This document shows positions 2,843-33,282 of a DNA stretch of 39,356 nt, piece after piece. The DNA comes from a bacterium (lineage in GTDB: Bacteria; Patescibacteriota; Microgenomatia; UBA12405; BS750m-G30). The number at the start of each line of letters is the position of its first letter. Position 1 is the first letter of the stretch. Where the stretch lies: the NCBI GenBank assembly GCA_021157735.1, contig JAGGVZ010000019.1, positions 1 through 39,356 of the forward strand. The letters run 5' to 3'. The position numbers and the translations under genes were made by a program. A model generated the notes under the pieces. It had not been told where the DNA came from and ran no database searches. It was given only the letters and a program-made list of their open reading frames with translations.

Positions 2843-3703
2843 ATGGATACTTATCTTCGGCCGCCAGTATTCGCCGGTCGCTTTTACCCCGCCCCAAAAG
2901 AGGCCTTAGAAGAACAGTTAACTTCTTTATTTGCCGAAACCAAAAGGCTTGCTTTTCCGGGACCAATAAAATTCCTTCTTCTTCCCCATGCCGGGATAGT
3001 TTTCTCCGGCCTTACTGCCGCCTGGGGAGTAAGACAACTAGAAAAAGACCTTCCCGAACAAATAATTATCCTTGGTGTCAGCCACCGTGAATGGTTTTCT
3101 CACGCCGCTGTTTTTCCTAAAGGATATTGGGAAACTCCCTTGGGTAAAGTCCCTGTTTCCTCCCGTCTGCAAAAAAAGATTACCAACCAAAAAGAAATCA
3201 TCTCCGACCCCCAACCTCACCGGGAAGAACATTGCTTGGAGGTTATCCTCCCTTTCCTCCAATTTCTTCTCCCCCAGTTTGCCATTCTTCCTGTTTTGAT
3301 AAGTCAACCCCTTCCCACAGTCAAAAAAGCTCTTGCCGCTAAACTAGCAGCTTTCCTAAAAGAAGAGAAAACTCTCCTGATAGTTAGTTCTGATCTTTCC
3401 CACTATCCTCCTTTTTCCTTTGCCCAAAAAGCGGATGCCGCGGTAATTAAGGGAATTGTTACCGGAAAAGAAGCTCTTTTCCAAAAAGCTATCAAAGAGG
3501 TGGAAAACGCCCAATTTCCAGGATTAGAAACAGCTGCCTGTGGTCAAGAAGCGATTGGCATTGCTTTGAAGGCGGGAGAGAAGATAGCCTTAAAATATCG
3601 TTTGGTTAACTATCGCAATTCCGGTGACTCTCCTTGGGGAGAGAAAGACGCTGTTGTTGGTTATGCGGCCATTGCCGGCTACCAAAATGGTCAAAATTCT
3701 TGA
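2843..3703 (+). CDS. amrB: AmmeMemoRadiSam system protein B (MEMO1-like)
   Basis: 286 aa. N-terminal RPPVFAGRFYP motif, HAG and SHRE His-containing motifs, SSDLSHY, and a C-terminal VVGYAAI segment match the Memo family. Confidence 0.85.
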   Translation: MDTYLRPPVFAGRFYPAPKEALEEQLTSLFAETKRLAFPGPIKFLLLPHAGIVFSGLTAAWGVRQLEKDLPEQIIILGVSHREWFSHAAVFPKGYWETPLGKVPVSSRLQKKITNQKEIISDPQPHREEHCLEVILPFLQFLLPQFAILPVLISQPLPTVKKALAAKLAAFLKEEKTLLIVSSDLSHYPPFSFAQKADAAVIKGIVTGKEALFQKAIKEVENAQFPGLETAACGQEAIGIALKAGEKIALKYRLVNYRNSGDSPWGEKDAVVGYAAIAGYQNGQNS

Positions 3704-9467: not shown

Positions 9468-9505
9468 CCCTGAAAATCAGATTGCTGACGGGGGAAAGTC
9501 TTTTG
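9468..9505 (-). other. 3' strand of the 23S rRNA processing stem (pairs with 12726..12763)
   Basis: As RNA, CAAAAGACUUUCCCCCGUCAGCAAUCUGAUUUUCAGGG is near-perfectly complementary to the 5' flank CCUGAGAAUCAGAUUGCUGACUCAGGGGGAGUCUUUUG. This is the typical RNase III-type stem bracketing a 23S. Confidence 0.7.
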
Positions 9506-9923
9506 GTCGGTCTGATAGGAATGGCTCGGCTAAAATCCTTACGGATCTTACACCTGCCACCCATACCCGGTAGTCTTCCGGGGACCTGATAACGATTCCT
9601 TATCTTGGGGTGGGCTTCCCGCTTTAGATGCTTTCAGCGGTTATCCCTTGGGAACGTAGCTACCCGGCAGTGCCCTTGACAGGACAACCGGTACACCAGC
9701 GGTTCCCTCAGCCAGGTCCTCTCGTACTGTGGCCGACTCCCCTCAGGAATCAACGGTTACTGCGGATAGAGTCCGAGCTGTCTCACGACGCTCTGAACCC
9801 AGCTAACGCGGCGCTTTAATGGGCGAACAGACCAACCCTTCCCGACTTCTCCATCGGGAGGATGCGCCAAGCCGACATCGAGGTGCCGAACCGGGCCGTC
9901 AATGTGGACTATCGGGCCCGACC

Positions 9924-9956
<33 letters not shown>

Positions 9957-10012
9957 AAGCCCAGAGGCTTACCACGAGCCACTGGGGATCACTAAGACCT
10001 GCTTTCGCATCT

Positions 10013-10100
10013 CTCCGGCTTTCGACAAAGTCGAAACGTCGGAGTCGCCTCCCTTTACCTTCACCCAACCGGCTGGCAGGGATCAGATAAAGTTTGGCGA
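10013..10100 (-). other. ~88-nt expansion segment in 23S domain V
   Basis: It lies between the conserved blocks CUGCGAGACUGACGAGUCGAGC and GAUGCGAAAGCAGGUC. E. coli has only ~10-15 nt here; this gene has a long foldable insert (UCGCC...GGCGA stem plus a CGAC-UUU-GUCG tipped hairpin). Confidence 0.6.
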
Positions 10101-10376
10101 GCTCGACTCGTCAGTCTCGCAGTTAGGCTAGCTTTTGCCTTTGCACTTACACTCCGATTTCCATTCGGAGTAAGCTAACCTTTGTACGCCCGCGTTACCT
10201 TTTAGCAGGCGGCTGCCCCAGCCAAACTGACCGCCAAGCACTGTCCCCGTCCGCGTTTCCAGCGGACATAGGTTAGGTTCAGGAATGATGAAGGGTGGTA
10301 TTCCACTGGTGTCCGACGTGACGTCGGACTCCCACCTATTCTCGACAGTCATCAAACCATCCCCAATGCTAAGCTT

Positions 10377-10408
<32 letters not shown>

Positions 10409-12329
10409 AGTAACTAACCGGCATCTTCACCGGTATTTCAATTTCGCCGGACAGAGGGTCGAGACAGTTGCTCGGTCGTTGGGCCTTTCATACCGGTCGG
10501 AACTTACCCGACAAAGGACTTCGCTACCTTTGGACGGTTAGAGTTACCGCCGTCGTTCACCGGGGCTTCGGTTCTCCGCCCTCCGACGCAACGTCGGAGG
10601 ACGAATCCCCTTAACCTTCCGGCACCGGACAGGCTTCAGCCCCTATACATCCCCTTACGGGTTTGCAGAGACCTGTGTTTTTGGTAAACAGTCGCCGAGC
10701 AGTCTTTCGCTGCGGCCCCGACGTGACGTCGAGGCAGGGCATCTCCCGAAGTTACGCCCAGCTTTTTTGCCGAGTTCCTTGACCCTCCTTTATCCGACCG
10801 TCTTCCCGTTCTCCGGGTGCCCACCAGTGTCGGTTTGCGGTACGGACGCCTCTCTTTCTCTGCACGAAGCTTTTCTCGGCGCCAGAAGTCAGCTGACTTC
10901 TCCGACAAACGTCGGAGTCGCGGCTAGCCTCGCCTTAAAACGAGACGGCGGATTTCCCTACCATCTCTAGCTTGGCTAACCGATGCGGCAGTTTCACTAC
11001 CACACCCAGCCTATCCCAACGCGTCACTCCCTGCATGATAACGAAAGAGAGACGGGGCCGGAATATTAACCGGCTATCCATCGGGTACCCCCGACATCAC
11101 GTCGGGACTCCCCTTAGGCCCGCCTAACCCTCAGCCGACAAACGTTGCTGAGGAAACCTTGGGCTTTCGACGGTCCGGATTCTCACCGGACTTACGCTAC
11201 TCATGCCGGCATTCTCACTTCCCAGCGCTCCACCCCGACTTTCATCGGGACTTCACCGCCCTGGGAACGCTCCCCTACCCTCCGACGTAACGTCGGAGCT
11301 CCGTCTTCGGTAGCCTGTTTAAGCCTCGTTAAATTTTCGGCGCAGTTAACCCCCTCCGACAAACGTCGGAGTTCGACCAGTGAGCTGTTACGCTTTCTTT
11401 AAAGGATGGCTGCCTCTAAGCCAACCTCCTGGCTGTCTAGGGTTAACCACCTCCTTTACCACTTAACTTAAGTCCCGACGTAACGTCGGGACAGGCATTT
11501 GGAGACCTTAGACGGGAGTCTGGGTTGTTTCCCTCTTGCCTAACCAGCTTAGCCCGGCTAGGCTGACTGCCTCGCTAGAACACCCGGTATTCGGAGTTTG
11601 GTTAGACACTGGAGGTTGCCCCCCAAATGCCTATCCAGTCGCTCTACCCCCGGGTGCCATCACGAGACGCTATACCAATATATATTTCGGGGAGAGCCAG
11701 CTATCTCCGGGTTCGATAGGCATATTACCCCTAACCACAGGTCATCCGATAGGATTGCAGCCCTAACCGGTTCGGGCTTCCCCCCGACTTTCGTCGGGGT
11801 TCACCCTGCCCATGGTTAGCTCACCCGGTTTCGGGTCTCTTGCCAGCCGCTAAACGCCTTATTCAGACGTTTCGCTTTCGCTCCGCCTCCGTCCGAATTG
11901 CTCCGGACTTAGACTCGCGACAGGCAAGAACTCGCCGGCTCATTCTTCAATAGGCACGCCGTCAGTCCGACATAACGTCGGACCTCCGACTGCTTGTTAG
12001 CAAACGGTTTCAGGTTCTATTTCACTCCCCTCCCGGGGTTCTTTTCACCTTTCCCTCGCGGTACTATCCGCTATCGGTCGGCAAGAGTATTTAGCCTTTC
12101 CGGGTGGCCCCGGAAGATTCCCACGGAATTTCGCGTGTTCCGTGGTACTCAGGTATCCTGCACCGCTGTACTCAGTTTTCGGATACAGGGCTTTCACCTT
12201 CTCTGGCTACCTATTCCAAGGTATTCTCCTAACCTTTCCAGCGGGGGAAGCAGGACCCTACAACCCTCCGACGTAACGTCGGAGTTTGGGCTGTTCCCTG
12301 TTCGCTCACCGCTACTAAGGGAATCACAC

Positions 12330-12511
12330 CTCGCCCTCCGGGCGAGAAAGCCCTAAATCCTAATGACCTAAATCCTAAACAATATCTAACGACTAAAAAT
12401 TTAAATGCCCAAAATAAAAAATGTTTTTTGGTTATTGAGTCATTAGAGTCTTGAATTTGTTTAGGATTTCGGATTTAGAAAATTAGAGCTTCCTTGTCCG
12501 AAGGACGAGGA
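12330..12511 (-). other. Intervening-sequence-like insertion in 23S domain I: AT-rich ~135-nt inverted-repeat element (12354-12488) flanked by two GC mini-hairpins (12330-12346, 12491-12511)
   Basis: The insert interrupts the conserved GAGGAAAAGAAA...GAUUCCC region. The arms ctaaatcctaaacaa / ttgtttaggattt are complementary. The element is built from CTAAATYC octamers and is homologous to the 16S insert at 22629-22760. Confidence 0.75.
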
Positions 12512-12526
12512 TTTTTTGTTTTCTTT

Positions 12527-12565
<39 letters not shown>

Positions 12566-12725
12566 CTCCGACGTAACGTCGGAGGCTCCGATTCAACATC
12601 GGAGCGGGTTTCCCCATTCGGAGACCGCCGGATCATCGGTTGCAGACACCTCCCCGACGAGTATCGCCGTCTGCCGCGTCCTTCTTCGGCTCTTGCCGCC
12701 AAGGCATCCACCGTTTGCTTCAGTT

Positions 12726-12763
12726 CAAAAGACTCCCCCTGAGTCAGCAATCTGATTCTCAGG
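12726..12763 (-). other. 5' strand of the 23S rRNA processing stem (pairs with 9468..9505)
   Basis: ~38-nt complementarity with the 3' flank, with one small internal loop and one G-U pair. Confidence 0.7.
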
Positions 12764-21318: not shown

Positions 21319-21409
21319 AAAAATCCTTTAGAAAGGAGGTGATCCATCCGCTCCTTCCAGAACGGATACCTTGTTACGACTTAGCCCTCATCGCTGGCCC
21401 CACCTTATT

Positions 21410-22883
<1,474 letters not shown>

Positions 22884-22974
22884 CGCTCGACTTGCATGCC
22901 TTAGGCACGCCGCCAGTGTTCATCCTGAGCCACGATCAAACTCTCAGTTAAAAAACAAACACTCAAACGAAATG

Positions 22975-23147: not shown

Positions 23148-23220
23148 GGATGCGTAGCTCAGGGGTTAGAGCGCCACTCTTATAAAGTGGAGGTCGCAGG
23201 TTCGAATCCTGCCGCATCCA
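23148..23220 (+). tRNA. tRNA-Ile with unmodified-type UAU anticodon (AUA decoder)
   Basis: Cloverleaf: GGAUGCG-UA-GCUC-AGGGGUUA-GAGC-G-CCACU-CUUAUAA-AGUGG-AGGUC-GCAGG-UUCGAAU-CCUGC-CGCAUCC-A. The anticodon loop CUUAUAA puts UAU at positions 34-36. Confidence 0.85.
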
Positions 23221-23243
23221 CAACCACCTTTTCAAAACAAAAC

Positions 23244-26730: not shown

Positions 26731-28591
26731 ACAGTGGTGGGAAAAAATCCGTCAGAAAATTCAGAAAATTCAACCGCCATCCTCGGAAAAACCAAAAGAG
26801 GAAAGTAACTCTTTGGCAGCGGGATTAATTACCGTTCAAGACATCATTGCCCCCTCGGCCATTGAGGTAGATTTCACCTACTTGCGTATCAACAACCGCT
26901 ATTACCGCACTTTTTATGTTGTCAACTACCCCCGCTATGTTAGCCCCACCTGGCTTGCCCCTCTGATTAACTTCGACCAAGAGCTGGATATAGCTATGTA
27001 CATTTACCCCTCCGAAGAAAAAAGGATTCTTGAAGATTTGAAAAAGACCATCGCCCAAATGGAAGCAGAAATCTCTATCGATACCCAACGAGGAAAGGTA
27101 GTTGACCCGGTAACTCAAGCAAAACTAGAAGACGCCCTTCTCCTTCAAGAAAAACTTGCCAAGGGAATAGAAAGATTTTTCCAGTTTGGCCTTTATATCA
27201 CAATTTCTTCAGAATCACTAGAACAACTTAACCGGGCCAGCAAAGAACTACAATCCTCACTGGGAGCCTTGATGATTGTCCCCAAACAGGCAATGCTGGA
27301 GATGGAAGAAGGATTTCGCACCGTCCTTCCCCTTTGTCATGACGAGCTTAATGTCACCCGTAATATGGACACCACCGCCTTGGCAACCACCTTTCCCTTT
27401 GTCTCCAGTGAACTTTCTGATGAAAAAGGGATTATGTACGGTATCAACGAACACAACGGCTCCCTGGTTATTTTTGACCGCTTTTCGATGGAAAACTACA
27501 ACAGTGTTATCTTTGCTAAATCAGGTGCAGGAAAAAGCTATCTCGTCAAATTAGAAGTCCTCCGCCAGTTAATGTTTGATACAGAAGTAATTGTTATTGA
27601 TCCGGAAAATGAATACCGCACCATGTGCCAAGCCCTAGGGGGACAATATATTACCTTTGGCTTCAGTTCTCCTGCCAAAATCAATCCCTTTGACTTGGAA
27701 ATTTCCCTTCACTCGCCAAACCAAGAAGAAAACGAATTAAGCCGAAAAGTTCTTTCCCTTTATAGTCTTTTCCGAATTATCATGGGGAAAATGACTCCCC
27801 AAGAAGAAGCTATTCTTGACCGCGCCCTTATCCAAACTTATAAAAACAAAGGGATTACTATGGACCCCTCCACCCAACAAGGAAAAGAAATGCCTCTTAT
27901 GGAAGATCTCTACAAAGTTCTTATTGGCATGGAGGAAGAGAAAGCGGCTTCTTTAGCTGCCCGCCTGGAGAAGTTTATCAAGGGAGCATTTGCCGGTTTG
28001 TTTAATGCCCAAACCAATGTCAACATTAAAAATAAATTTGTTGTTTTTGGCATCCGCGATTTGGAAGAAGCCCTCCGTCCTATTGCCATGCATATCATTC
28101 TTGACTTTATCTGGAATAAAGTCCGCCAGCAACTTAAAAAGAGAATCCTTGTGGTTGATGAGGCCTGGTATCTAATGCGCTATCCAGACTCTGCTCGTTT
28201 TCTTTACGGAATCGCCAAAAGAGCCCGGAAATACTATCTGGGATTAACCACCATTACCCAAGATGTTGACGACTTTCTCGGCTCCAAATACGGAGGGGCG
28301 ATTGTCAAAAACTCCTCTATGCAAATTCTCCTCAAACAACATCCAGCTGCTATTGACCAAGTAGGAGATATCTTTTATCTCTCTCAAGGAGAAAGGCAAT
28401 TCCTTCTCTCCGCTGATGTTGGTGAAGGAATTTTCTTTGCCGGGCAAAACCATGTCGCTATCAAAATCATTGCCTCTCCCCAAGAACACAAACTAATCAC
28501 TTCCAACCCAGCAGAATTAATAAAAAGACAGCAACCAAAATCTCCTCCCCAAAACCCTCCCCCTTCTGGTAAACTACCAGAGAGGCAATGA
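26723..28591 (+). CDS. VirB4/TraC-family type IV secretion ATPase
   Basis: 622 aa. Walker A FAKSGAGKSYLVK, Walker B RILVVDEAWYLM, then ITQDVDDF. The N-terminal VirB4-type domain follows a PrgI-like gene, as in Gram-positive T4SS loci. Confidence 0.85.
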   Translation: MDKQWWEKIRQKIQKIQPPSSEKPKEESNSLAAGLITVQDIIAPSAIEVDFTYLRINNRYYRTFYVVNYPRYVSPTWLAPLINFDQELDIAMYIYPSEEKRILEDLKKTIAQMEAEISIDTQRGKVVDPVTQAKLEDALLLQEKLAKGIERFFQFGLYITISSESLEQLNRASKELQSSLGALMIVPKQAMLEMEEGFRTVLPLCHDELNVTRNMDTTALATTFPFVSSELSDEKGIMYGINEHNGSLVIFDRFSMENYNSVIFAKSGAGKSYLVKLEVLRQLMFDTEVIVIDPENEYRTMCQALGGQYITFGFSSPAKINPFDLEISLHSPNQEENELSRKVLSLYSLFRIIMGKMTPQEEAILDRALIQTYKNKGITMDPSTQQGKEMPLMEDLYKVLIGMEEEKAASLAARLEKFIKGAFAGLFNAQTNVNIKNKFVVFGIRDLEEALRPIAMHIILDFIWNKVRQQLKKRILVVDEAWYLMRYPDSARFLYGIAKRARKYYLGLTTITQDVDDFLGSKYGGAIVKNSSMQILLKQHPAAIDQVGDIFYLSQGERQFLLSADVGEGIFFAGQNHVAIKIIASPQEHKLITSNPAELIKRQQPKSPPQNPPPSGKLPERQ

Positions 28592-30813
28592 AAAAAACTA
28601 AAAAGACGCTCAAAAAAATTATCAAAAAAATGCCCTCCCGTTGGTGGCTAATTGCCGCCGCAGGAGTTGTTCTTCTTTTAGGAGGTGGGATTACTTCCCT
28701 TCTCCTCTCTCTCCCCTCTCCCAAAAAACTCACTACCTTCCCCTATCCCGCCTCTACTTTGATTATGGACCGCCACGGGAAAGTCCTTTACGAAATCTAT
28801 GCCGAAAAAAATCGCATCCCGGTTAAGCTTGAACAAATTCCTCCCTATCTTCGTCAGGCAACCTTAGCGATTGAGGATAAAAATTTTTACCACCACCACG
28901 GCTTTGACTTCCGGGGAATTTTCCGGGCTTTTTACCATATTGTCGTCCACCACCAGCTTCAAGGAGGCTCTACCATTACCCAGCAGCTGGTCAAAAATGC
29001 CCTTTTAACCCCGGAAAGAACTTTAAAGAGAAAGATAAAAGAAGCTTTTTTAACCATTGCTACCGAAATTATCTATAGCAAAGATCAGATTTTGGAAATG
29101 TACTTCAACCAGACCCCTTATGGGGGAACAGCCTGGGGAGTGCAAGCAGCAGCAAAAACATATTTTGGTAAAGATGTCAGTGAGCTGACGTTGGCCGAAG
29201 CCGCTCTCCTTGCCGGCCTCCCCGCTGCTCCCACCCGCTATTCCCCCTTCATTCACCCTGATTTAGCCAAAAAGCGCCAAGAATTAGTTTTGGATAAAAT
29301 GGTAGAAAACGGTTTTATCTCTCCCCAAGATGCCCAAAAAGCCAAAGAAGAAAAACTGCACTTTGTTTCTCCCCAGACAAAAATTCTCGCTCCTCATTTT
29401 GTCTTTTATGTCAAAGAAAAGTTAGTAGAAAAATACGGACAAGCAAGGGTAGAAACAGGGGGGTTACGGGTCAAAACTACCCTTGACTGGGACTTGCAAC
29501 AATTTGCCCAAGCAACCGTTGCTACCGAGATAGCCAAACTGAAAAAATATCACGTCACCAATGGGGCGGCCTTAGTGACCAATCCTAAAACTGGAGAAAT
29601 TCTAGCAATGGTTGGTTCCAAAGACTACTTTGCTGAAGATATTGACGGCAAGTTCAACGTCACCACCGCCTTGCGCCAGCCCGGGTCGGCAATAAAACCA
29701 ATCAACTATGCCGACGGTCTGCTTCACCGCCGGGTAACCCTGGCAACAGTCTTCAACGACTTGCCTACCTGTTTTATTGTTGGTGGCCAACCTAAAGCTT
29801 ATTGTCCCCGCAACTATGACGGTCGTTTTCGCGGTCCTGTTCAACTCCGTTTTGCCCTCGGCAATTCCCTGAATATCCCGGCAGTAAAAATGCTGGCTAT
29901 CAACGGCCTTGACAGTTTTATCCAAACCGCCCAAAAAATGGGCATTGAGACTTTTACCAACCCCCAACGCTATGGTCTCTCTCTGACCTTGGGAGGAGGA
30001 GAAGTAAGGATGACGCAGATGGCGACTGCCTTTGGTGTTTTTGCCAACATGGGAATCCGCCGCGATCTTACCGCTATTCTAGAGGTTAAAGATAAAGACG
30101 GCCGAGTCTTAGAAAAAAAGGATTTTTCCACCGGAAAAAGAGTTCTTCCTCCAGAAGTAGCCTATCTTATCAACCACACCCTTCTGGATAACAACGCCCG
30201 CAGCGCCGTCTTTGGTCCTCATTCCTGGCTGGTAGTGAAAAACCATCCCGAAGTTTCAGTAAAAACTGGCACTACCAATGACAAAAGAGACAACTGGACC
30301 ATTGGCTATAATCCCGATATCCTGGTGGCTGTCTGGGTGGGAAATAATGACAACTCTCCGATGAGCGCTGTTGCTTCAGGAACCACCGGCGCTTCCCCCA
30401 TCTGGAACAAAATCATCAGTTTTGCCTTGAAAGACAAACCCCAGAAATGGCCTCCCAAACCCCAAGGGATTGTAGGAAAAACTATCTGTAATGAAACCGG
30501 TTTTCTCCCCCCTCCAGAAGGATGCTCCCTTCGCTTTGAATATTTCATCAAAGGTACAGAACCCACCCAAGCAGTTCCTTTAAGAAGGAATATTCTCATC
30601 GACAAGGATACTAACCAACCTGTCCAACCGGGAGAAAAGAAAGAAAACACCGAGTGGCAGTCTCACCTGGCTGTGGTTGATCTTTTGGGGACTGTTTCCT
30701 GTCTGGATTGTCCTTCCAGTGAGGAAAAGTCGCCGGCCAAAATTTTTATCAAAGACAACCGCAAACCGTTTCCCACCCTCGCTCCTTCTTCTCCGCAAAC
30801 AAATCCGTTATAA
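28588..30813 (+). CDS. Class A penicillin-binding protein (glycosyltransferase GT51 + transpeptidase), copy 1
   Basis: 741 aa. TM anchor. GT51 motifs EDKNFYHHHGFD, GGSTITQQLVKN and RKIKE. Transpeptidase motifs GSAIKP (SxxK), SLN and KTGTT. ATGA overlap with the VirB4 stop. Confidence 0.9.
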   Translation: MKKTKKTLKKIIKKMPSRWWLIAAAGVVLLLGGGITSLLLSLPSPKKLTTFPYPASTLIMDRHGKVLYEIYAEKNRIPVKLEQIPPYLRQATLAIEDKNFYHHHGFDFRGIFRAFYHIVVHHQLQGGSTITQQLVKNALLTPERTLKRKIKEAFLTIATEIIYSKDQILEMYFNQTPYGGTAWGVQAAAKTYFGKDVSELTLAEAALLAGLPAAPTRYSPFIHPDLAKKRQELVLDKMVENGFISPQDAQKAKEEKLHFVSPQTKILAPHFVFYVKEKLVEKYGQARVETGGLRVKTTLDWDLQQFAQATVATEIAKLKKYHVTNGAALVTNPKTGEILAMVGSKDYFAEDIDGKFNVTTALRQPGSAIKPINYADGLLHRRVTLATVFNDLPTCFIVGGQPKAYCPRNYDGRFRGPVQLRFALGNSLNIPAVKMLAINGLDSFIQTAQKMGIETFTNPQRYGLSLTLGGGEVRMTQMATAFGVFANMGIRRDLTAILEVKDKDGRVLEKKDFSTGKRVLPPEVAYLINHTLLDNNARSAVFGPHSWLVVKNHPEVSVKTGTTNDKRDNWTIGYNPDILVAVWVGNNDNSPMSAVASGTTGASPIWNKIISFALKDKPQKWPPKPQGIVGKTICNETGFLPPPEGCSLRFEYFIKGTEPTQAVPLRRNILIDKDTNQPVQPGEKKENTEWQSHLAVVDLLGTVSCLDCPSSEEKSPAKIFIKDNRKPFPTLAPSSPQTNPL

Positions 30814-31128: not shown

Positions 31129-33282
31129 ATGAAAAAACTTCTTCTTCCTTTTACCATTATTGGCCGTTTTTTTCTCCGCTTTTTCTATTTTATCGGCCAT
31201 CCTCTTTATCTTTTGGGGCTGTTTTTAGGAAAAAGTCTCCTTTCTTCTCTATTTCTTTTCCGCCCCTTTTTGCTTTTTCTTGGAAAAAGAATAGTTATCC
31301 TTTTGGCTACCTTTACTCTTTTTCTGATTTCTTTCTGGTTTTTTATCCTTAAAGATCTTCCCTCGCCCAACAAACTCAACCAGCGTTTTTTACCCCTTTC
31401 TACCAAAATCTACGATAGAAAAGGAAGACTCCTTTACAAAATCTACCGTCACCAAAACCGCACCTTAATTCCCTTAGATGACCTTCCCCCTTTTCTTATC
31501 CAAGCAACTGTTGCCGCCGAAGACAAAGAATTCTGGCAACACCGGGGAATTTCTCTGCGAGGAATAGTCAGAGCTCTAATTCATAATCTCTCCCACCCTC
31601 ACCATTCCTTAATGGGAGGCTCCACTATTACCCAGCAGCTGGTCAAAAATGCCCTTTTAACCCCGGAAAAGACATGGCGACGGAAGTTAAAAGAAATGAT
31701 TCTTGCCCTTTGGGTGGAGACAAAATTTTCTAAAAAAGAGATTCTCCAAATGTATCTTAACGAAGTTCCCTATGGAGGAACTGCTTATGGAATCGAAGAA
31801 GCTGCCCAAAAATACTTTGGCAAATCAGCTCGGGAACTCAACCCCGCGGAAGCCGCCCTTCTTGCCGGCCTCCCTGCTGCTCCCACCCGCTATTCTCCTT
31901 TTGGCGCCTACCCCCAACTGGCCAAAAAACGCCAAAAACAAGTTCTTGAAGAGATGGTCAAAGCAGGCTATCTCCTCCCCGAACAAGCTGCCCAAATTGC
32001 CAAAACCCCTCTTTACTTTTCCTTCCAAGCCAATCATCTAAAAGCACCTCATTTTGTTTTTTATGTTAAAGATCTTTTAGTTGAAGAGTACGGTCAAAAT
32101 CTAGTTGAACAGGGAGGATTGGTAGTTACCACCACTCTCGACTTAGAACTGCAAGAAAAAGCAGAAAAAATCCTCCGCGAGGAATTGGAAAAAATCAAAA
32201 ATCTTCATGTGACCAACGGGGCAATCTTAATCATCCATCCTCCCACCGGAGAAATCCTGGCAATGGTTGGCTCCAAAGACTACTTTGATTTTCAAAATCA
32301 AGGAAACGTTAATGTGGTGCTTTCCCCCCGTCAACCGGGATCTACTATTAAGGTCGTCAACTATGCTGTTGCCCTCCAGAAAGGTTTCACTCCCGCTACC
32401 ATTCTCTCTGATACTCCGGTAACTTTTCGCCTCTCCCGGTGGCAAACATACTCCCCCAAAAATTATGATCGTAAGTTCCACGGAAAAGTTCCCTTAAGGG
32501 TTGCCTTTGCCTCTTCTTTAAATGTTCCCGCGGTTAAGGTTCTTGCCGCAGTAGGAGTAGAGGAAATGGTCAAGATGGGAAAGAAAATGGGTATCACCAC
32601 CTGGGACAATTCTCAACGCTTTGGCCTTTCTCTAACTCTGGGAGGAGGAGAGGTAAAAATGATTGACTTGGCCCAGGTTTATTCTGTTCTCGCTAATTTA
32701 GGGATAAAAGTTCCCTTAAAAGCAATTCTCAAAGTACAACAACCACAAAAAGCTTTGGACTTTCCCTCACCCCCCTCCCAAGAAGTTCTTGACCCGGGGG
32801 TAGCTTTTCTTATCAACGACATCCTCAGCGATAACAAAGCACGAACGCTGGGATTTGGTCCTCACTCTCTTCTTAACATTCCTAACAAAACAGTGGCGGT
32901 CAAAACCGGTACCAGCAACAACCTTCGCGACAACTGGGCTATTGGCTATACCCCTCAATTTCTCGTAGCCGTCTGGGTGGGAAATAATGACAACTCTCCG
33001 ATGAGCAAAATTGCCTCGGGAATTACTGGGGCTACTCCTATCTGGCGACGGCTCACCGATTATCTTCTCACCCAATATCCCCAAACTGGTTGGCCCAAAC
33101 CCAAAAATGTTGTCTCTCTGGCTATTTGTCGTCCAACCGGAACTCTTCCCTGTCAAGGATGCCCTTTGATAGAAAATGAGTATTTCCTTACCTCTTTTCT
33201 CCCCAAAACTGCTTGCCGCCCTGCCTGGTTTTCTCCTAATCAGTCACCAAAAACCAGTAAATCTTCTCTGTCATCCCTCTAA
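31129..33282 (+). CDS. Class A penicillin-binding protein, copy 2
   Basis: 717 aa. Long hydrophobic N-terminus. Motifs EDKEFWQHRGIS, GGSTITQQLVKN, GSTIKV (SxxK), SLN and KTGTS. Confidence 0.9.
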   Translation: MKKLLLPFTIIGRFFLRFFYFIGHPLYLLGLFLGKSLLSSLFLFRPFLLFLGKRIVILLATFTLFLISFWFFILKDLPSPNKLNQRFLPLSTKIYDRKGRLLYKIYRHQNRTLIPLDDLPPFLIQATVAAEDKEFWQHRGISLRGIVRALIHNLSHPHHSLMGGSTITQQLVKNALLTPEKTWRRKLKEMILALWVETKFSKKEILQMYLNEVPYGGTAYGIEEAAQKYFGKSARELNPAEAALLAGLPAAPTRYSPFGAYPQLAKKRQKQVLEEMVKAGYLLPEQAAQIAKTPLYFSFQANHLKAPHFVFYVKDLLVEEYGQNLVEQGGLVVTTTLDLELQEKAEKILREELEKIKNLHVTNGAILIIHPPTGEILAMVGSKDYFDFQNQGNVNVVLSPRQPGSTIKVVNYAVALQKGFTPATILSDTPVTFRLSRWQTYSPKNYDRKFHGKVPLRVAFASSLNVPAVKVLAAVGVEEMVKMGKKMGITTWDNSQRFGLSLTLGGGEVKMIDLAQVYSVLANLGIKVPLKAILKVQQPQKALDFPSPPSQEVLDPGVAFLINDILSDNKARTLGFGPHSLLNIPNKTVAVKTGTSNNLRDNWAIGYTPQFLVAVWVGNNDNSPMSKIASGITGATPIWRRLTDYLLTQYPQTGWPKPKNVVSLAICRPTGTLPCQGCPLIENEYFLTSFLPKTACRPAWFSPNQSPKTSKSSLSSL

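Follow-up and report, generated by a model that had tools for sequence, protein, structure and literature searches.

In this uncultured vent bacterium, each of the two rRNA genes of the window (the whole stretch of 39,356 nt analyzed here, contig JAGGVZ010000019.1) is interrupted by an AT-rich block. The 23S and 16S blocks are probably diverged copies, without a gene, of one widespread palindromic insertion element, and are best classed with the intervening sequences (IVSs) associated with IVP genes. IVSs have been known since about 1990. The element measures about 110–160 bp, and each arm is an array of 7-nt repeats, with the two arms inverted relative to each other; the full-length form carries a gene of the PF05635 family, and the copies in the window would be IVSs that lost, or never had, this IVP gene. 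Its landing sites would be two helix loops in which additional RNA is tolerated; transcribed within the pre-rRNA, the element would fold into a rod of about 60 bp that sticks out from the tip of the helix. Most likely, RNase III would cut the rod out without re-ligation, leaving the 23S rRNA as pieces of about 220 nt and 2.8 kb, and the 16S rRNA as pieces of about 180 nt and 1.3 kb.

The host 23S rRNA gene lies on the minus strand at 9495–12734 and has a length of 3240 nt, against 2925 nt for the Rfam model, which it matches over model positions 1–2925 (RF02541, 2385 bits). In the cmscan alignment, 187 nt replace a single nucleotide between model positions ~229 and 231, and in a MAFFT alignment with E. 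coli rrlH the insert begins after E. coli nucleotide 227. From these two placements, the boundaries of the insert are set at 12327–12513 (minus strand), which agrees with the block of about 180 nt at 12330–12511 that had been recognized from the letters of the DNA. The insert sits in the loop of a 2-bp hairpin that is flanked in the Rfam alignment by AGGAAAAGAAA and GAUUCCC. This hairpin, aligned to E. coli 224–231, is what we take to be helix 12 (H12) in the standard numbering, and the insert is not at any of the classical H9, H25 and H45 sites, as had been suspected.

The core of the 23S insert (12354–12488) has a GC content of 25.9% versus 56.3% in the remainder of the gene. As RNA, the insert is predicted to form a 66-bp rod with a folding energy of −74.5 kcal/mol (shuffle mean −37.4; z = −8.9), the lower ~28 bp of which constitute an almost uninterrupted duplex. 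The AT-rich core has two arms: (i) the 5′ arm in the RNA sense (12432–12494, minus strand) reads as a series of heptads, ...CUAAUUU UCUAAAU CCGAAAU CCUAAAC AA..., with a period of 7, an exact copy of the family 20-mer at 12457–12476 and a match to the arm HMM at 12480–12432 (31.5 bits); and (ii) the 3′ arm (12346–12408, minus strand) is an inverted copy of the heptad array (UUGUUUAGGAUUUAGGUCAUUAGGAUUUAG), matches the arm HMM at 12348–12408 on the + strand (21.9 bits), and is the pairing partner of the 5′ arm in the predicted MFE structure. The sequence-only reading had described an AT-rich core in a GC-rich gene, built of octamers whose arms pair as a long hairpin; composition and pairing are borne out, but the repeat unit is a heptamer, with autocorrelation peaks at lags 7 and 14 (0.47–0.48 in the window cores, 0.56 in the family).

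There is no ORF inside the 23S insert, where the sole ORFs enter from the rRNA flanks, and Rfam searches of the insert (at E-value thresholds) and of the window (at gathering thresholds) detected no intron or other family. The best Rfam scores on the insert are generic, plant-miRNA-like hairpin noise of 36 bits, compared with gathering thresholds of 171–230. With no covariance-model match and a length of 187 nt that is too short for a group I or group II intron, the insert is neither coding nor an intron, in line with the initial assessment. In several independent hydrothermal-vent metagenome runs and studies, contigs read through from rRNA into each insert on either side, and the inserts are therefore real DNA and no assembly artefact. 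Readings of these blocks as a structured functional RNA, as a self-splicing intron or as a chimeric assembly have a negligible probability: the predicted fold is very stable, but no Rfam family was found in the insert or in 11 related loci, neither an RNAalifold consensus nor covariation was detected among family copies, and the junction-spanning contigs speak against a chimera.

The 16S rRNA gene (21332–22951, minus strand; 1620 nt; Rfam RF00177, 1398.6 bits) is unlinked to the 23S gene, and contains a second copy of the same family, a 153-nt insert at 22625–22777 (minus strand) in the loop of helix 9 (h9). The cmscan alignment places 153 nt in exchange for 3 at 16S model position 188, MAFFT places the insert after E. 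coli ~191, and the hairpin whose loop it occupies precedes the AAAG/h10 region. The 16S insert contains the exact family 20-mer at 22725–22744, has a predicted fold of −62.1 kcal/mol (z = −8.9) and has no ORF; nor is there an IVP homologue anywhere in the window. The proposed homology of the two inserts is confirmed by formal alignment: blastn aligns them with 71% identity over 136 nt (E = 3e-12 for a window-sized search space), the Smith–Waterman score has a z of 19.7 relative to shuffles, and over a stretch of about 30 nt the two sequences are nearly the same.

We also considered recent copying from the 23S to the 16S gene. In the family alignment, the two window copies are 68% identical, compared with a mean of 67% over all pairs of copies, which come from different phyla, and each window copy has nearer relatives in metagenome-assembled genomes (MAGs) of other phyla than in its window partner. 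Recent copying is rejected, since the window copies are no closer than random family pairs; instead, they are old or were acquired separately. The earlier statement that one element colonised both genes therefore holds in the sense of one family, but not in the sense of a spread within this genome. Other contigs from the same vent metagenomes match a 33-nt stretch of arm in the 16S insert at all but one position before diverging, which indicates that more copies exist in that vent community. In runs X1 and X2, there are strains that lack exactly 7 nt of the 16S insert, corresponding to one heptad in the outer 3′ arm (22629–22635); slippage, or unit-wise change in length, does occur.

As for the surroundings of the inserts, 8.4 kb of protein genes separate the 16S and 23S genes, both of which are on the minus strand. 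A tRNA-Ala(UGC) gene is located just upstream of the 23S gene, and a tRNA-Ile gene with a genomically encoded UAU anticodon (23148–23221) just upstream of the 16S gene on the opposite strand; Rfam detected no 5S gene in the window. The 23S gene has a second large insertion, 88 nt at 10013–10100, which is GC-rich, follows E. coli 2368 in domain V, and does not belong to the heptad family. Further along the window, two tandem paralogous genes (28588–30813 and 31129–33282) code for products of ~720–740 aa and share stretches of 74–89% DNA identity about 2.65 kb apart; a common GGSTITQQLVKN-type motif suggests that they encode class A penicillin-binding proteins.

Relatives of the inserts are found well beyond this genome. 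The degenerate 20-mer AAATYCKAAATYCTAAACAA, taken from the 5′ arm, occurs at at least 120 loci when one genome is used per prokaryotic species, whereas we estimate that chance would account for about 9. The host MAGs among the matches listed belong to Planctomycetota, Patescibacteria including Saccharibacteria, Elusimicrobia, Nitrospirota, WOR-3, Omnitrophota, Deltaproteobacteria, Bacteroidota, Chloroflexi, Actinomycetes and others, and since several matches are located on contigs of 100–330 kb, mis-binning does not explain the spread over phyla. With blastn, full-length relatives of the insert are 68–77% identical over 110–140 nt, and among the loci listed almost none is flanked by rRNA. An arm profile identifies 202 arms in the loci listed, with about 50 compact inverted pairs that span 105–210 nt; 49 of 50 compact copies lie outside ORFs of at least 120 aa, often 0–30 nt from the adjacent genes. 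Many matches are at contig ends and several MAGs have several loci each, as expected of a multi-copy repeat. The element is no speciality of rRNA genes; nearly all copies found lie between protein genes.

What recurs in these loci is a specific order of heptads. The arm consensus is AAATCCT AAATNCT AAATCCT AAATYCT AAACAA ..., the two arms being mutually inverted, and the ordered series, including a TAAACAA landmark and an ATGACC start, is present in at least 120 loci from unrelated phyla. This bears on a home-grown origin, in which the inserts would be helix extensions produced by independent slippage of AT-rich heptads at two tips, resembling each other through low complexity and involving no mobile element. 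The sequence is indeed repetitive and AT-rich, and strains differ by exactly one heptad, but against slippage stand the near-identical block of ~30 nt and the 136-nt alignment between the inserts, the same ordered heptads at all these loci, and arms that enclose a conserved protein gene (see below). Such an origin is already largely refuted, and we consider it highly improbable.

Nine predicted viral contigs of IMG/VR (L133–L141) also carry the family, with three to four arm matches on the 7–9-kb contigs L137 and L141; unless they are misclassified, viral contigs are a possible vehicle for the spread of the family between phyla. A blastn search of GenBank phages and PLSDB plasmids gave no match to the element. 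At the ends of the intergenic copies no direct repeat is evident, and neither a target-site duplication nor a transposase was found, so that the argument for mobility is the distribution itself. Two copies have a different setting: a compact copy at L028 (2235–2366) lies wholly inside an ORF of at least 120 aa, and an arm at L097 (1881–1940) is followed by apparent coding sequence. Both may represent in-frame insertions into protein genes.

A link between the element and the IVP gene is provided by three loci (L018, L026 and L116), where the 5′ arm runs directly into an ORF of 121–128 aa. The ORFs are assigned to PF05635 (23S_rRNA_IVP) by Pfam, with E-values of 5.5e-16 (L018), 1.4e-13 (L026) and 4e-14 (L116), and to TIGR02436, a four-helix-bundle protein, by NCBIfam; the arms are positioned 1–7 nt upstream of, or around, these genes. 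At L026, arms at 3145–3207 and 3558–3618 enclose the ORF (3186–3551), the ATG of which lies within the inner 5′ arm. No cargo other than the PF05635 gene recurs between arms in the family loci listed. Since only three of the ~125 arms found adjoin an IVP gene, the link is based on few cases. The gene-less copies, including the 16S insert (ATGACCAAAAUA...), retain the ATGACC stretch and, judging by this sequence, resemble gene-carrying elements reduced to two arms joined to each other. PF05635 proteins are encoded by the ORFs of IVSs in Coxiella, Leptospira and other bacteria, and the Xanthomonas member is a ring-shaped homopentamer (PMC4990558); the family is also similar to Avd, a protein of diversity-generating retroelements (PMC10053308). 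The original view of the 23S block as an IVS-type stem-loop insertion at a helix tip is supported, and its link to classical IVSs is strengthened by the same arms beside PF05635 genes elsewhere and by family copies at H9 and H25 of another 23S gene.

We analyzed the arm symmetry by counting arm–arm pairing on an alignment of 32 family copies, and by shuffling the 3′ letters among the sequences 500 times. Arm–arm cells are paired in 77.1% of cases compared with 78.5% in the shuffles, 496 of which equal or exceed the observed value, and RNAalifold finds no consensus structure for the 32 copies. Invariant positions (AAA and C of each heptad, and TAAACAA) always pair, while variable positions are uncompensated, and rRNA-embedded copies are no better paired than intergenic copies. 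Without arm–arm covariation, the hairpin is a side effect of one motif being present in two inverted arrays: the arm symmetry reflects shared heptad motifs and no selection for base pairing. The heptad arrays instead point to sequence recognition, probably by a protein.

Taken together, the family copies in rRNA genes occupy h6 and h9 of 16S rRNA, and H9, H12 and H25 of 23S rRNA, while elsewhere copies are mostly located between genes. In a Thermodesulfovibrionales MAG (L072), the tip of 16S h6 bears a 147-nt insert, within which a family copy lies in antisense orientation. In a metagenomic 23S gene (L124), family copies follow E. coli 133 (H9) and 538 (H25), and a 107-nt AT-rich insert follows E. 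coli 228. The 23S genes of L124 (9246–12602) and L127 (366–2261) have AT-rich inserts of 30–140 nt at many helix tips, which in L124 follow E. coli 133, 163, 228, 368, 538, 1549 and 2220; several of the inserts in these two genes are clear members of the heptad family.

To survey H12, we scanned a metagenome collection for a terminal heptad 8–38 nt from the conserved GAUUCCC..AGUAGCGG flank. Of the 11 loci retrieved, ten have inserts of 55–144 nt in the H12 loop, the other (L130) having only 8 nt. The H12 insert of L127 is a clear family member, and others are more degenerate AT-rich rods. The 23S genes with H12 inserts represent five lineages and are 69–74% identical to that of the window (E. 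coli, 69.5%), which indicates that H12 has been used repeatedly in deep lineages and that the distribution is sporadic. At the H12 site (window 12327–12516), a contig of another organism in run X1 has only a 20-nt GC hairpin (CTCGTGCTTCGCACGAGGTC, + strand); its stem is like the basal stem of the window insert, and it may show the unoccupied state of an extended H12.

The two GC mini-hairpins reported to bracket the 23S core are real as judged by sequence and fold. The 5′ hairpin, CUCGUCC-UUC-GGACAAG (~12493–12509, minus strand), is supported by both sequence and fold, and the 3′ hairpin, CUCGCCC-GGA-GGGCGAG (12330–12346, minus strand), by sequence; alternatively, the two can pair mutually as the 5′ and 3′ strands of a 13-bp basal stem, and then form the base of the rod. 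A hairpin bracket is present on every rRNA-embedded copy examined (both window copies, L072 at h6, and L124 at H9 and at H25); L127 at H12 has a 3′ hairpin, CCAGCGC-GGA-GCGCUGG, its 5′ side being lost at the contig end. The bracket hairpins take the forms a-b-a′ and a-rc(b)-a′, with stems that are alike and loops that are complementary (UUC/GGA or GAA; ACA/UGU), and they are near-duplicates whose orientation looks inverted, not direct. In the 23S, 16S and L072 copies, where the left stem differs from the right, the changes compensate each other within the mini-hairpin concerned, but are mismatches in the alternative long rod.

The possibility that the GC hairpins are part of the element was evaluated and rejected. 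They accompany 3 of 47 intergenic copies per side, compared with 7.8% of control windows, and since they are no commoner at intergenic copies than in controls, they go with the rRNA setting and not with the element. Mere insertion into a loop gives no account of paired GC mini-hairpins; they may have been left behind when the element integrated at a hairpin, or may act as caps that shield the freshly exposed RNA ends once the rod is gone. A different GC hairpin, CCGACG-UAAC-GUCGG, occurs with close variants in 12 copies within 10308–12604 and 21683–22883 of the window, where it caps unrelated helices of both 23S and 16S rRNA, including the tips of H9/H10 and H25.

With regard to the fate of the inserted RNA, we consider excision without ligation somewhat more likely than retention. 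This preference follows from analogy with every experimentally tested IVS, all of which are excised by RNase III (PMC4990558), and from the near-continuous basal duplex of ~28 bp, which would be an ordinary RNase III substrate. The insert, the 16S rRNA of the organism and the L124 23S rRNA were sought in public RNA runs, none of which matched (shares of at most 0.32, from conserved words only). Most of the probability left by excision falls to a reading in which the heptad-armed element has the same origin but its RNA is kept, forming expansion segments in mature, unfragmented 23S and 16S rRNAs. Such retention is a real possibility, if clearly the less probable course. In its favor, rRNAs of CPR bacteria bear many insertions of unknown fate (PMC11270868), and the H12 inserts of 55–187 nt in several deep lineages indicate that extra RNA is tolerated at this site. 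In addition, strains differ in the 23S insert by six events, five of them at unpaired positions, a weak hint, from few events, that pairing matters. Against retention stand the tested IVSs, the basal duplex, and the arms themselves, which show no covariation and are no better paired within rRNA than between genes. We regard excision of the rod from both rRNAs as the more likely outcome.

The association described here ties an IVS-type element by sequence to a large, dispersed, IVP-carrying family that is present in many phyla, and suggests where, concretely, the many short CPR rRNA insertions that lack an explanation may come from. It makes two old questions testable: does the IVP bind the heptad arrays, and is the IVP needed for spread? 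There is also a practical aspect, since inserts that lengthen, and may fragment, 16S and 23S rRNAs affect primer-based surveys and rRNA-based binning. More speculatively, IVSs as a whole could be the rRNA-resident minority of mobile palindromic cassettes that cross phyla, the arms of which would be phased 7-nt sites read by the pentameric, Avd-like IVP encoded in the full-length element; helix tips would be the sites at which insertion can be survived, and the GC hairpins either a mark left by hairpin-directed integration or caps kept by selection. We offer this generalization tentatively, as it is rather unlikely to be correct in full; if true, such insertions would give rise to novel sites of rRNA fragmentation and to novel expansion segments.

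Compared with known systems, the element resembles MITEs and REP/REPIN sequences in being short, gene-less, multi-copy and intergenic, in consisting of inverted repeats, in its occurrence at contig ends and in having a longer gene-carrying relative. Small dispersed inverted repeats, the hallmark of MITEs, are seen at about 50 of the loci listed (105–210 nt), whereas in place of a transposase-encoding parent the only recurrent cargo is the PF05635 gene. No target-site duplication was found. The element further differs from both MITEs and REP/REPIN sequences in that its long form carries the gene of a four-helix-bundle, IVP/Avd-like protein and no known transposase or RAYT, and in that its arms are built as phased 7-nt arrays where simple terminal repeats would be usual.

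Closer parallels exist among rRNA insertions. In Helicobacter fennelliae, AT-rich, ORF-less IVSs with shared homology likewise occur in the 16S and 23S genes of one organism, with a 16S site near nt 175, and the shared homology was taken by the authors as a sign of a common ancestral element; those IVSs are 355 and 271 bp long and share only 26 bp, and neither heptad arms nor dispersed non-rRNA copies were reported (PMC3335488). The insertions surveyed in CPR rRNA genes by Tsurumaki et al. (2024) are from the same host group, shorter than 200 bp, and without intron model or ORF; short ORF-less insertions and 23S_rRNA_IVP ORFs are both described there in 16S as well as 23S genes, and RNase III-type IVSs were suggested (PMC11270868). 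That survey did not define a sequence family, heptad arms or non-rRNA copies, and H12 and h9 may be among the hot spots of the survey (PMC11270868).

The best match is with the bacterial IVSs of Salmonella, Leptospira, Coxiella, Campylobacter and Helicobacter, in which stem-loops replace helix tetraloops and are excised by RNase III, some of them carrying an S23p ORF (PMC4990558). Like these, the window inserts replace the loop of a surface helix by an extended stem-loop, have complementary ends, are AT-rich and are sporadic in distribution; relatives of the element carry the S23p/PF05635 ORF, and family copies are found at H9 and H25. Unlike these, the window inserts are ORF-less and occupy H12 (E. 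coli 224–231) and 16S h9, outside the list of H9, H25 and H45, and the element is mostly located outside rRNA, of which we found no description in the IVS literature searched. The kind of insertion is thus already known, and what the present analysis adds to the literature searched, including the accessible text of the CPR survey, is the sites, the assignment to a family and the link to the IVP gene.
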